Assembly (NCBI GenBank): GCA_963758635.1
Contig: CAVWWD010000003.1
Span: 352,001 to 416,000, forward strand
Source: an uncultured Candidatus Rokubacteria bacterium
Lineage (GTDB): Bacteria; Methylomirabilota; Methylomirabilia; Rokubacteriales; CSP1-6
Direction of reading: 5' to 3'
DNA length: 64,000 nt
Within the stretch, counting starts at the first letter, position 1. Every line of letters starts with the position of its first letter. This document shows, one piece after another, positions 47,273 through 55,771 of the stretch. The position numbers were made by a program, and so were the translations under genes. The notes below the pieces were generated by a model. That model ran no database searches, was not told the DNA's origin, and saw only the letters and a list, made by a program, of their open reading frames with translations.

Positions 47273-48253
47273 TTACTCGATCACCTGGTCTGCTCGGGCG
47301 AGCACCGACGGCGGGATCGTCAGGCCGAGCGCCTTGGCGGTCTTGAGATTGATCACCAGCTCGAACTTGGTCGGCTGCTCCACGGGGAGATCGCCCGGCT
47401 TGGCCCCTTTGAGAATTCGGTCGACGTAGCCAGCCGCGCGGCGATACAAATCGTCGAAATTCGTCCCGTAAGACATGAGGCCGCCAACCTTCACATTCTC
47501 CCCCACTGCCCAGATTGTCGGAAGGCGGCCTTTGATCGCGAACTCGGCGATCCGTCTCCGGTGAGTACCGAGCATCAGGTCCCCAAATACGATCAAGGCT
47601 TCGGGCCGCTCATTTCTCATCACGGCAAAGGCACGGTCGAGATCGTCGGGTCCTGTGGCCTCCAGAGCGCGAAGTGTCACGCCCAGAGCTGGAGCGACCG
47701 CCTGGATCTCTTTCAACTGGAGCGGATTCGTGGGGTTGTCAGGATTCAACAGGACAGCGACACGCGAGGCCGTGGGCACGACTTCCTTCAGGAGTTCGAC
47801 CCGTTTGGTCACCACACCCAGGTTGAAGTCTGATAGCCCTGTGATGTTGCCGCCCGGCCGAGCGAGATTTGTAACCAACCCCGTCCCGACAGGATCGGCG
47901 GCATTTCCGATAACGATGGGGATCACAGTCGTAGCATTCTTCGCAGCGTGGGCGGCGTTCGCGCCTACCGCGACCAAAATGTCGACTCTGAGACGGACCA
48001 GCTCGGTGGCAAGATTGGACAACCGTTCAAATCGTCCGTCAGCATAGCGATACTCGATTATGATGCTTTTCCCGGACACATACCCGAGTTCGCGCAGCGC
48101 TTGCTCGAAAGCAACTACACGGCCCTTGATAACCTCAGCCGCCGGGGTCGCCAGAAACCCTATTCGCGGGATCTTCTTCGCAGGCTGCGCCTCGGCGCCG
48201 CGCGGCGCGGCGAGCAGGCCGAGGGCGCCCAGGAAGGCGCGCCGGTCAAGCAT
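47273..48253 (-). CDS. ABC_sub_bind-type substrate-binding protein 1 (Tat-like signal)
   Basis: [47 protein letters not shown]. Confidence 0.92.
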   Translation of the reverse strand: [326 protein letters not shown]

Positions 48254-48563
48254 CGCGGGCCACCTGCCGCGCCATCGTGGCCGCCGTGGACGCGGCACGG
48301 ATGTCCTTGTGCGTGATCCGGAACACGGGCACACCCTGTTCGTCACGCACCCACTGCGCGATGGCGAAGTTGCGCGGGTCCGCGTACCGCGTGAGCTGCA
48401 GGTCGTACCCCTGGCGCGCCATGCCCGTCTCGAGGTCGCCGATGGCGCGCCACGTGTCGAGCCAGCCGTGCAGCGCACGGACGCCCGGATGATCAGGTAG
48501 CGGCATGGTGGCGGCTTCGACGGTGAGCCAGAGCAGGCGCGCGCGAGGGTTGAGCATCGTCAC
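48246..48563 (-). CDS. hypothetical protein, module A copy 1
   Basis: WLDTW...GMARQGYDLQLTRY joined to a WVRDE...AATMAR tail. Confidence 0.6.
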   Translation of the reverse strand: MTMLNPRARLLWLTVEAATMPLPDHPGVRALHGWLDTWRAIGDLETGMARQGYDLQLTRYADPRNFAIAQWVRDEQGVPVFRITHKDIRAASTAATMARQVARDA

Positions 48564-49555
48564 TCGATCACGTGGTCGGCCCGCGCCAGCAGCGACGGCG
48601 GGATCGTCAGGCCGAGGGCGCGGGCTGCCTTGAGGTTGATGATCAGCTCGAACTTCGTCGGTTGCTCGATCGGCAGGTCGGCAGGCTTGGCGCCCTTCAG
48701 GATTTTGTCGACGTAAGCCGCGACGCGCCGATAGATCTCGACGAGATCCGCGCTATAGGAGATCAGCCCGCCTGCCTCGACGAAGAGCCGGAGGACATAC
48801 ATGGTGGGGAGCCGGCTCTTTGCAGCAAGCTCCGCGATTCGCCCAGCGTGCCTGTCGAAGAACCCGCCCGCGAGCACGAGGAGAGCGCCGGCGCGCGCGC
48901 CAGTCGCCGCCTTGAGCGCCCGCTCGATCTCGCCGGCATCTCGAATCTCGAGCGAGAGCAGCTTCCACCCCCGCTCCCTGGCAGCGGCCTCGGCCGCCTG
49001 CCAAGTCAGGAGGTTGGTTCGATGCCAGAGGACCGCCACTGTCGCCGCACCCGGGACGAGCTCCTTGAGCAGCTCGAGCCGCTTCCCGGTGATCTCTATC
49101 GACTGAAGGCTCAGCCCCGTGAAGTTCCCGCCCGGTCGTCCGAGGCTCTGGACAACCCCCTGGCCCACGGGGTCGCTGGCGCCCGCCATGACCACGGGGA
49201 TCGTCGAGGTTGCCTGCTTCAGCGCGCGCAGCATAGGCGATCCGGCGACGATCACGTCTACAGGGAGACGGACCACCTCGGCCGCGAGGCTGGGGAAGCG
49301 CTCCGGCTTGCCCTCGCCCCCGCGAGGCTCGGTCACGAAATGGGCGCCATACACGTAGCCAAGCTCGCGCAAGCCGCGCAGGAGCGCGTTGACCAACGGG
49401 GACTGGGGCTGGGGCCCGACCATTTCGGAGGTCATGGAAGTAGGACTCAGGATCCCGATCCGATAGACCTTGCGCGCGGGCTGGGCGAGGGCGGCGCAGG
49501 GCACCGCGAGGGTCGCGAGGGCGAGGGCGCCGAGGAAGGCGCGCCGGTCCATCAT
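48560..49555 (-). CDS. ABC_sub_bind-type substrate-binding protein 2
   Basis: Same family motifs, intact ORF. Confidence 0.92.
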   Translation of the reverse strand: [331 protein letters not shown]

Positions 49556-53790: not shown

Positions 53791-54779
53791 TCGATCACCT
53801 GGTCCGCCCGCGCTAGCAGCGACGGCGGGATCGTGAGCCCGAGCGCCTTGGCGGTCTTCAGGTTGATCACGAGCTCGAACTTCGTGGGCTGCTCGACCGG
53901 AAGGTCGGCGGGCTTGGCGCCCTTGAGGATCCTGGTGACGAACATCGCTCCCTGTCGCCAGATCGTGATGAGGTCTGGGGCATAGGACATCAGGCCGCCG
54001 GTCTCGACAAATGCGCGGAGGGGATACATGGTGGGAAGCCGGTTTCTCACGGCCAGTTCCGCGATGCGTCGTCTTTCTGTGAACGCCAATGCGCCCCCCA
54101 CGACGAAGAGCGCACTGGCCCGCGCCTCAGTCGCCGCTCTGATGGCCCCATCGATTTCACCAGCGGCTCGAATCTCAAGCGACACCAGCTTCCAGCCCCG
54201 GGCACGGGCGGCGGCTTCAGCCGCCACTAACGAGCGGTGGCCCATTCGATCCCAGAGAACGGCTACGGGCGCTGCACCCGGGACCAGTTCCTTGAGCACC
54301 TCGAGCCGCTTTCCTGCCGTCTCGACGGTCTGAAGGCTCATCCCCGTGAAATTCCCGCCCGGTTGTCCAAGGCTTTGGACGAGACCCCCCGCCGACGGGA
54401 TCAGTGGCCGCGACCATCACGACGGGGATCGTCACCGTCGCCTGCTTGAGCGCCGCCAAGGTTGGCCCCGGCGCGACGATCACGTCGACAGGGAGACGAA
54501 CCAACTCGGCCGCCAGCCCTGGCCAATGCTCCGAACCGGTCACTGCTGCGGGGCTGGGTCACGTAGTGCTCTCCGTAGATGTAGCCGAGCTCCCGCAAGC
54601 CAACTATGAGCGCATTGATGTAGGGGGCCCGGGGCTAGGCCCGACGAAAGTGGGGGAGACGTGGTGACGCCAAAGATGAGCCCCGACGCGGGAACGCGAC
54701 GCGCAGGCTGGGCGCTCGATGCGCGGGGCATGGCGAGGGGTCCGAAAGCGAGGCTGCCGAGGAACGCGCGCCGATCCAT
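53787..54779 (-). CDS. ABC_sub_bind-type substrate-binding protein 6 (frameshifts in the 5' half)
   Basis: Pieces at 54540-54779, 54401-54598, 54217-54543 and 53787-54341. Confidence 0.82.
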
Positions 54780-55771
54780 TACTCGATCACCTGGTCCGCC
54801 CGTGCGAGCAGCGATGGCGGGATCGTGAGGCCGAGCGCCTTGGCGGTCTTGAGGTTGATCACCAGCTCGAATTTGGTGGGTTGCTCGACAGGGAGATCGG
54901 CGGGCTTCGCGCCCTTGAGGATCTTGTCAACGTAGGTGGCGGCCCGCCGGTGGAGATCGAGAAAGCTTGGCCCGTAAGACATGAGACCCCCGTCCTCCAC
55001 ACTCTCCCTGTTGCCGTATGCTGTCGGCAGGCGGCTCCTGGCTGCGAGGTCTGCGAGCCGTGTTCGGTAGGAGCTGAATATCGCATCTGACAGTACGAGG
55101 AGGGCTCCCACGCGCTCTTTGGCCATCGCCGCGAATGCGCCGTCGAACTCGTTCGGACCTCGAGCCTTCAGGAGTTGAAGCTGCACTCCCAACGACCGCG
55201 CCGCGACGTTGACTTCTCTTATCGCGAGCTGGTGGTACGCATTGGCCGGGTTCGAGAGGATGGCCACACGGCGGATCTGGGGGACGGTCTCCTTGAGCAG
55301 CTCCAGTTGTTTGGCGACGGTTTCCAGGCCGGCGTAGCCGGACACTCCTGTGACGTTCCCGCCCGGGCGCGCGAGGCTCGCGATGAGCCCGGTGCCAACA
55401 GGATCGCGAACGGCAATCATGACGATGGGGATCGTCTCGGTGGCGTTCTTGGCTGCCGTCACTCCTTGCGTCCCGAACGATACGATGAGGTCCACTTTGA
55501 GCCGGACCACCTCGGCCGCCAAGTCGGGCAGCCGGTCGACCCGATCCTCCGCATATCGATAGTCGATGACAATATTCTGGCCCTCAACCCACCCAAGCTC
55601 GCGCAGCCTTTGCCGGAACGCGTCGAGCAGGGGCGGCCTATCGGAAGGGGACGTCAAACTAAGAAAACCTATCCGAGGCACCTTTCCCGCCTGCTGCGCG
55701 TCGGCGGCGAGCGGGGCGGCGAGGAGACTCACGGCGAGGACAGCGACGAGTGCGACACCCCTGATCATCAT
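54779..55771 (-). CDS. ABC_sub_bind-type substrate-binding protein 7 (signal lacks RR)
   Basis: Intact ORF, family motifs. Confidence 0.92.
   Translation of the reverse strand: [330 protein letters not shown]

Follow-up and report, generated by a model that had tools for sequence, protein, structure and literature searches.

The seven-gene array

The stretch of DNA analysed here (the window) comprises 64,000 nt of contig CAVWWD010000003.1 from an uncultured Candidatus Rokubacteria bacterium and is part of a 6.2-Mb genome in 12 contigs, labelled C1 to C12, of which C3 holds the window. Within an integrative element, its minus strand carries seven genes for periplasmic binding proteins of the ABC_sub_bind family (PF04392). 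Each gene is divided here into a head (the 5′ gene end with the signal peptide), a core (the ligand-binding middle of ~750 nt), and a tail (the constant 3′ ~150 nt, or 50 residues). Genes g (54779–55771), f (53787–54779), e (52801–53790), d (51833–52804), and c (50841–51836) form a run of five, ending with c, in which genes are arranged head-to-tail and stop and start codons touch or overlap, leaving no spacers; genes b (48560–49555) and a (47273–48253) follow. The PF04392 profile matches a, b, e, and g and parts of c and f with scores of 72–178 bits (curated cut-off 25.9), and d was placed by profile alignment alone. Frame breaks occur in f (three) and d (nine), neither with in-frame stops; they are likely, though not proven, to be assembly indels, since gaps of 1–2 nt are also present in the rpoB/C alignments. 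Open reading frame (ORF) coordinates and profiles thus bear out an earlier note on this DNA, which had described seven ABC_sub_bind-type genes of ~1 kb, five of them head-to-tail. The tail-plus-head repeat that it saw recurring about every 1 kb is likewise real: a 264-nt repeat family has seven copies, spaced by 992, 968, 986, and 992 nt within the five-gene run. No sigma-70 promoters or terminators were found above chance between the array genes.

Heads and tails are host-like in their G+C content at third codon positions (GC3; heads 151/160 = 0.94, tails 317/348 = 0.91, genome ORF median 0.92), whereas the cores are poorer in G+C (1316/1746 = 0.75). Of 72 paralogues found here and in related genomes, 61 have a higher GC3 in the tail than in the core; no rise at the end is seen in 1353 control ORFs (middle 0.924, end 0.904) or in the 224 of them with low GC3 (0.717, 0.722). 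Pairwise DNA identity among the seven genes is 80–90% in tails, 47–69% in cores, and 56–91% in heads. The head of g is of a different type (56–73% identity to the other six) and is preceded by an IS256/Mutator transposase remnant (55768–56030, minus strand) which overlaps the start of the gene. The earlier picture of constant, host-like ends around divergent, more AT-rich cores therefore holds for GC3 and identities but has to be qualified with respect to the head of g and to the ends, which are not near-identical. Identity at fourfold-degenerate sites is 0.72 in heads (0.57–0.62 expected from composition) and 0.58 in tails (0.42–0.47 expected); as it only modestly exceeds the expectation, much of the end similarity reflects protein constraint and GC bias.

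The array, treated at first as a single one, is real but is one of several. The genome holds 42 family loci, with more arrays on C7, C8, C11, and C12; the family is present in 21/21 genomes of one set of relatives, several of them with tandem runs and the same GC3 pattern, and 53 of 80 metagenome loci contain at least two paralogues. Profile matches to PF04392 number 52 to 85 per genome, the metagenome-assembled genomes (MAGs) G184 and G186, both alphaproteobacterial, having 85 and 83, respectively.

Cores that recur with different gene ends

The exchange of a core is evident within the genome itself. Gene e has a near-identical core in a split copy on C12, which has other ends and other neighbours. 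In the 3′ core, 2 of 341 nt differ between the two, compared with 16 of 144 nt in the tail (p = 1.7e-7). Eight differences fall within the first 70 aligned nt; in the remaining 5′ core, 12 positions differ and 11 are gaps, most of them in one poor stretch. Upstream, the window gene adjoins f and the C12 copy a cyclase gene; the downstream neighbours are different paralogues. A near-identical core combined with a different tail and different neighbours shows core exchange. The C12 copy is interrupted by a 7.5-kb insertion (L021:3477–11000) with a ~17-bp duplication, which we take to be an IS21-like pair with nested tyrosine recombinases.

The core of g, which is shared across phyla, extends this pattern beyond the genome. 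In an order-wide survey of 183 genomes, with two candidates scored per genome, core g was found at 93–96% DNA identity in 10 loci belonging to other genera and families. Their heads are 46–70% identical in nine cases and 98% in one, which shares the IS256 remnant; their tails are 78–88% identical, and rpoB/C identity to nine of these genomes is 80–90%. From a survey of species genomes, 80 of 271 relatives were retained, and 30 of these 80 loci were analysed. Close relatives of g that have heads of the window type bear Rokubacteria or Methylomirabilota titles. Nine MAGs titled Alphaproteobacteria, or members thereof, carry core g at 88–97%, with heads that resemble those of resident paralogues and of cultured Bradyrhizobium; rpoB/C matches to five of these hosts are fragmentary, at 72–83%. 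Six loci were omitted from the cross-phylum counts: L155 (Acidobacteria title, but a gene that matches one in a genome assigned to the same taxonomic family as the window), L154 and L164 (unspecific titles), and L162, L171, and L193 (single cases, possible misbinning). Over 99 Alphaproteobacteria–Rokubacteria pairs, identity is 0.45 in the head, 0.925 in the core, and 0.78 in the tail, and fourfold divergence is 0.10 in the core and 0.46 in the tail. The nearest resident head comes from the host phylum in 19/19 g-core genes, and the same is true of the last 22 codons in 18/19. Core GC3 is ~0.77 in most hosts. The flanks of the g-core loci are unrelated, except for the IS256 tail and short pieces. 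Parts of the cores of a, b, c, e, and g are also present, at 96–100%, on contigs from four further studies. One query for viral carriers of gene g gave none, and on plasmids only 60–80% matches were found, in rhizobia.

The trees of gene parts point the same way. In approximately unbiased (AU) tests on 71 genes (fast search, 5000 replicates), a g-core clade was rejected for the head (p 2e-18), where a split by host was accepted (0.28), and accepted for the core (0.86), where the host split was rejected (3e-6); for the tail, the g clade was rejected (0.016). The host phylum changes twice on the 71-gene head tree (23.9 times when shuffled), and the g label changes once on the core tree and 11 times on the head tree. 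In a set of 326 distinct genes, the head is less similar than the core in 326/337 pairs whose cores are 90–99% alike, and the tail in 300/321; tail identity stays at 0.79–0.85 while core identity runs from 0.6 to 0.99. Grouping by close cores yields 21 families, about half with less similar ends and the rest consisting of near-identical whole genes; head types also differ within a second core family, L065 and L138 being 92% identical in the core and 58% in the head. Ligand-binding cores are thus found again at other loci and in other genera and phyla, joined to different gene ends. The proposal of the earlier note that cores are exchanged by recombination is supported by the copies of e and by the g-core mosaics, and the reach of the exchange, across genera and phyla, is wider than proposed there. 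The comparisons that it suggested agree: trees of ends conflict with those of cores; synonymous divergence varies along the genes, genes with near-identical cores having a fourfold divergence of 4–10% in the core and 27–52% in the tail; and the same core has different neighbours in different arrays.

Exchange, function, and alternative explanations

Crossovers in g concentrate in two zones. The 5′ zone (55694–55714, minus strand; profile columns 19–30) coincides with the predicted signal-peptide cleavage site, and the main 3′ zone (54899–54973, minus strand; columns 270–294) with the start of the constant tail. The 5′ breakpoint lies at columns 19–24 in 10 of 12 g copies with a head, at column 44 in one, and is lacking in one; 3′ breakpoints are scattered over columns 252–294, and some alphaproteobacterial copies switch further 3′ than the main zone. 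An RRxF motif, presumably a twin-arginine translocation signal, is present in 20/33 heads of the genome. No attC-like hairpins were found at four junctions (16 folds, z −1.9 to +1.7). No IntI was seen beside the array, although no IntI-specific profile was used; the integrase of the element is 10 kb away and has its own 20-bp repeats. The window holds no reverse transcriptase (RT), RT matches occurring only on C10 and C11 of the genome, and no shared recombinase was found; the earlier remark that no dedicated recombinase or RT is visible apart from the integrase stands. Overlapping stop and start codons were found at 93 head-to-tail junctions, with variable spelling, and the mobile genes beside g-core loci differ from locus to locus. 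The absence of hairpins and of a shared recombinase, together with the spread of crossovers, makes homology-driven recombination most likely.

The array is probably a local stock of binding genes, into whose resident copies cores are exchanged by homology-driven recombination, likely retuning periplasmic sensors. Foreign DNA would arrive most likely by natural transformation, and also on mobile elements; ComEC and DprA are present in the genome. The incoming DNA could be anchored by the ~150-nt tail and resolved at a match of 10–30 nt near the cleavage site. Such tail-anchored exchange would resemble the homology-facilitated integration seen in transformation. Unequal crossing-over between tail–head junctions may build and shrink the arrays, and the lower GC3 of the cores may reflect passage through many hosts. 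Public metagenome runs, which consist of contigs from mixed communities, contain no more than 17% of the stretch; their depth over tails is hundreds of times that over cores, the joints in them stem from other organisms, and no 1-kb circles were seen in these mixed data.

Several points weigh against this interpretation. With gene ends in the array ~85% alike, not identical, and only a modest excess at fourfold sites, end similarity alone would be no proof of recombination. The spread across phyla is shown mainly for core g, all genomes in the cross-lineage comparisons are MAGs, and every cross-phylum label is a MAG title. A low-sensitivity search of 301 genomes from a single alphaproteobacterial order, with only two candidates scored per genome, did not find cores a to f. 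Two core families (285 and 86 pairs) dominate the counts of close-core pairs, and the pairs are not independent. In the clade shared by b and f, heads stay with cores (head 57–89% at core 68–87%). Tails of the alphaproteobacterial g copies start out more similar to those of the window's genome than to those of the host, and only their last ~22 codons are host-like, which implies that the tail is often partly co-transferred with the core. The homology available at the 5′ side across phyla is only 10–30 nt, and MutS, a barrier to recombination at 80–88% identity, is present.

The main rival holds that whole genes arrive on transposons, integrative elements, or plasmids, after which gene conversion by resident paralogues replaces their heads and tails; the outcome would be identical, but the gene ends would not be the entry sites. 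That the window array itself sits in an integrative element fits this route, as does the IS256 tail plus head (97–98%) shared by g and L175 across families. L193, in a genome with no other family member, has a head 78–87% like that of g and is followed by module Z, a linker of the window array, and genes of IS110, IS91, IS200, IS256, and a group II intron lie near 5 of 12 g-core loci scanned. However, most g-core loci have no common flanking DNA, no single element type recurs at them, and L150 and L151 have cores 99% alike but heads only 78% alike. As a general account this route is rather unlikely, but it probably also occurs, as at L175 and L193.

It is improbable that a dedicated cassette system (a site-specific recombinase, an integron-like system, or an RT acting through cDNA) moves cores, or 1-kb head–core–tail circles, by signals hidden in the coding ends. 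The sharp 5′ boundary, the frequency of head-to-tail arrays with overlapping codons, and an RT gene just downstream of 2 of 12 g-core loci would fit such a system. The spread of the 3′ breakpoints, the single 5′ breakpoint at column 44, the lack of hairpins and of an RT in the window, and the variable junction spelling do not. Moreover, heads mostly do not accompany g cores, though a tail-to-tail circle would require that.

The predicted structure of g (predicted local distance difference test score 96.5) has the class I binding-protein fold, with template-modelling scores of 0.88–0.90 to 3lkv, 3lft, and 6hni. These relatives of the same family and fold (CD0873, VC_1101, and SP1069; PDB 6hni, 3lkv, and 3lft), in the available text of PMC6816091, are transporter subunits for Tyr, Phe, and Trp, whereas the array proteins are ~30% identical to them and have no transporter beside them. 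Two residues set selectivity in these Phe/Trp/Tyr binders (PMC6816091); both positions align to the mobile core just before the tail (columns 257 and 273, N254 and F270 of g). Entropy at these columns is 3.5 bits, compared with 0.9 in the tail, and 38 paralogues of the genome show 29 residue pairs. The 25 g copies contain no stop codon and have a pN/pS (the ratio of nonsynonymous to synonymous polymorphism) of 0.46. Nine residue types occur at column 103 (F99); judging from the fold, F99 would line the ligand cleft. Ligands listed for the family in the available text of PMC10443332 are Trp, Tyr, and Phe.

With regard to signalling, the genome encodes four dCache-HAMP sensors, three of which scanned as dCache domains and two of which have GAF and kinase domains. 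Three of the four directly follow a host-like PF04392 gene, and a PF04392 gene lies within 500 nt upstream at 19/34 sensor loci (18/33 without genome G027); in Rhizobium indicum, a family gene is paired with a dCache-HAMP cyclase. According to the available text of PMC8050422, a binding protein that stimulates a sensor kinase usually has its gene next to that of the kinase, as in LuxP/LuxQ and HptA/HptS, where the binding-protein gene adjoins a dCache-type sensor kinase; the name PF04392 does not appear in that text. In contrast to those pairs, tens of orphan binders would face four sensors here. Since host-like members directly precede dCache sensors, sensing is favoured, and on this evidence from gene order it appears somewhat probable that the array proteins serve it. 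They would signal through the few dCache-HAMP-GAF sensor kinases or cyclases and not feed transporters. It counts against such a role that 17 of the 19 sensor-linked binding proteins form a separate host-like clade, 32–39% identical to the array type, and that only two, in alphaproteobacterial MAGs, are closer to it; the adjacency is seen for the host-like clade, not for the seven window genes. A paralogue on C3 (L286:6500–7459) has a head resembling the alphaproteobacterial type and lies ~2 kb upstream of the sole dCache kinase with no adjacent partner.

Alternatively, cores may spread because landing sites are everywhere, as selfish hitch-hikers, or the proteins may serve transport or scavenging and not sensing. 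The solved relatives are amino-acid transporter subunits, many family copies are truncated or interrupted, and the genome has 65 permease-domain matches. This is nevertheless quite improbable in view of the stop-free g copies, their pN/pS, and their hypervariable column, all of which argue against a purely selfish or transport-related spread; in addition, only 1 of 43 family loci of the genome lies within 1 kb of a permease match (PF02653), and a, e, and g score 114–161 bits against the TrpX equivalog, far under its cut-off of 390. A last rival, with old duplications, strong constraint on tail and signal peptide, and binning or assembly chimeras in place of any special exchange, is scarcely credible and largely refuted: constraint and GC bias do largely explain the similarity of ends among distant paralogues, and MAGs, repeats that confuse assemblers, and doubtful titles (L154, L155, L171) could mislead, but constraint cannot render synonymous sites more divergent in the tail than in the core of close pairs, and the mosaic pattern holds within one genome and on contigs of 133–544 kb, one of which (G187:C9), from a MAG with an alphaproteobacterial title, carries both core g and the alphaproteobacterial marker GcrA.

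It is conceivable, though on balance doubtful, that the cores form a community-wide pool of ligand-recognition cassettes across several soil phyla. A host would then gain a new core in one step through its kept head and tail and plug it into its few dCache sensors, the community as a whole holding an antibody-like repertoire; cyclase-TPR genes and the lipoproteins linked to module Y (see below) would be shuffled by the same constant-end logic.

Relation to known systems, and the surrounding element

Variable cassettes between constant sequences are known from integrons, diversity-generating retroelements, msp2 gene conversion in Anaplasma, and domain movement in restriction systems. The array differs in that no attC-like hairpin, linked IntI, or RT was found and in that exchange spans phyla; nor is a single expression site seen. 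The closest likeness is to the tipC and esaG immunity-gene arrays of streptococci and Staphylococcus aureus. As described in the available text of PMC9484751, these are tandem paralogues, tipC having conserved 5′ and 3′ blocks around a variable binding middle, and recombination through the blocks alters content and copy number, with no dedicated enzyme named there. Conserved end blocks, a variable middle, and breakpoints within the blocks are all found in the array. Recombination through conserved end blocks is thus already known within species. Descriptions of the tipC and esaG systems stay within strains and species; in the present family, cores pass between genera and phyla, a host-specific signal peptide forms the 5′ block, the copies are dispersed among many loci, and a small-ligand binder is the cargo. 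The tandem lpl lipoproteins of S. aureus are also exported proteins reshuffled through conserved coding blocks, but their conserved block is central, the unit spans two genes, and the exchange takes place within a species (PMC9484751, available text).

Orphan expansions are known for the binding proteins of tripartite tricarboxylate transporters in Rhodoplanes and Bordetella, with tens to hundreds of genes lacking membrane parts, some near histidine kinases (PMC5994714). These expansions are ascribed in the available text to lineage-specific duplication and are rare in low-GC islands, whereas the cores described here are low in GC3 and transferred. No description of an orphan PF04392 expansion or of core exchange was found in literature searches that covered subscription papers incompletely. 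A specificity module that crosses phyla below the level of the gene, at 88–97% DNA identity and with recipient-type ends, would be misread by gene-level transfer scans and by taxonomic read assignment. Core exchange also offers an explanation for a large expansion of orphan binding proteins, which is testable through its defined crossover zones, selectivity residues, candidate sensor partners, and cultured hosts of the gene family in Bradyrhizobium and Rhizobium. The pool of cores amounts to a natural library of ligand binders on one scaffold.

The element that holds the array is delimited by exact 20-bp direct repeats (36160–36179 and 60648–60667, plus strand; zero expected by chance), likely its attachment sites, and spans ~24.5 kb. 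Besides the array, the IS256 remnant, and a class III cyclase-AAA-TPR gene, it contains a tyrosine integrase gene in two frames (36299–37228, minus strand), HTH and DUF3987/primase-like genes, and HNH, ACT, SprT-like, META, TonB_C, and DUF5681 genes; the repeats, the integrase, and the other element genes identify it as an integrative element. As stated in the earlier note, no permease or transporter ATPase was seen among the element ORFs scanned. No tRNA site was found within the window. A 418-aa backbone ORF is matched in one other of the 183 genomes, with a family tail and module Z nearby but no full array. Family arrays elsewhere were seen with no adjacent integrase. An IS256 transposase tail recurs as one more constant module on the upstream side, placed immediately before family genes whose cores differ (the window; L008, L014, L019, L047, L054, L074, L175; C8:20625 and C4:153522).

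Short linker modules, all on the minus strand, adjoin genes c, b, and a. Module X (49552–49701) leads into the head of b, and 48246–48557 comprises Z, which follows the b tail, and a further X, which precedes the head of a. Module Y (50624–50835), a Cys/His-containing ORF of ~70 aa with no match in Pfam, follows c; its stop codon overlaps with the start of the following gene, which varies. A second copy (47057–47268, 85% identical) precedes a META-domain lipoprotein gene, and a third Y tail (50358–50442) precedes a TonB_C lipoprotein gene; further copies lie at C4:367652–367861 and C12:12461–12680. Across five copies, the stop of the conserved Y tail overlaps the start of four different genes, three of them lipoprotein-like. 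The Y junction is a second cassette-like junction.

The cyclase-AAA-TPR gene (56476–60053, plus strand), which is divergent from the array and has frame breaks, is itself mosaic and shows a constant-end pattern. Its AAA part is 91–97% identical to a C8 paralogue, its TPR middle (~58900–59650) is unalignable to any paralogue and lower in GC3 (0.72–0.82), and its last ~250 nt are 68–90% conserved among paralogues; the genome has ~20 such genes. Of 26 family clusters, 6 have a cytoplasmic cyclase-AAA gene no more than 4 kb away (0.93 expected; 2/5000 random draws), which may reflect shared residence in plastic regions. A 124-nt direct repeat (83%; 56337–56460 and 60057–60180) on both sides of the cyclase gene suggests that it was inserted into, or duplicated with, the end of a DUF5681 gene.

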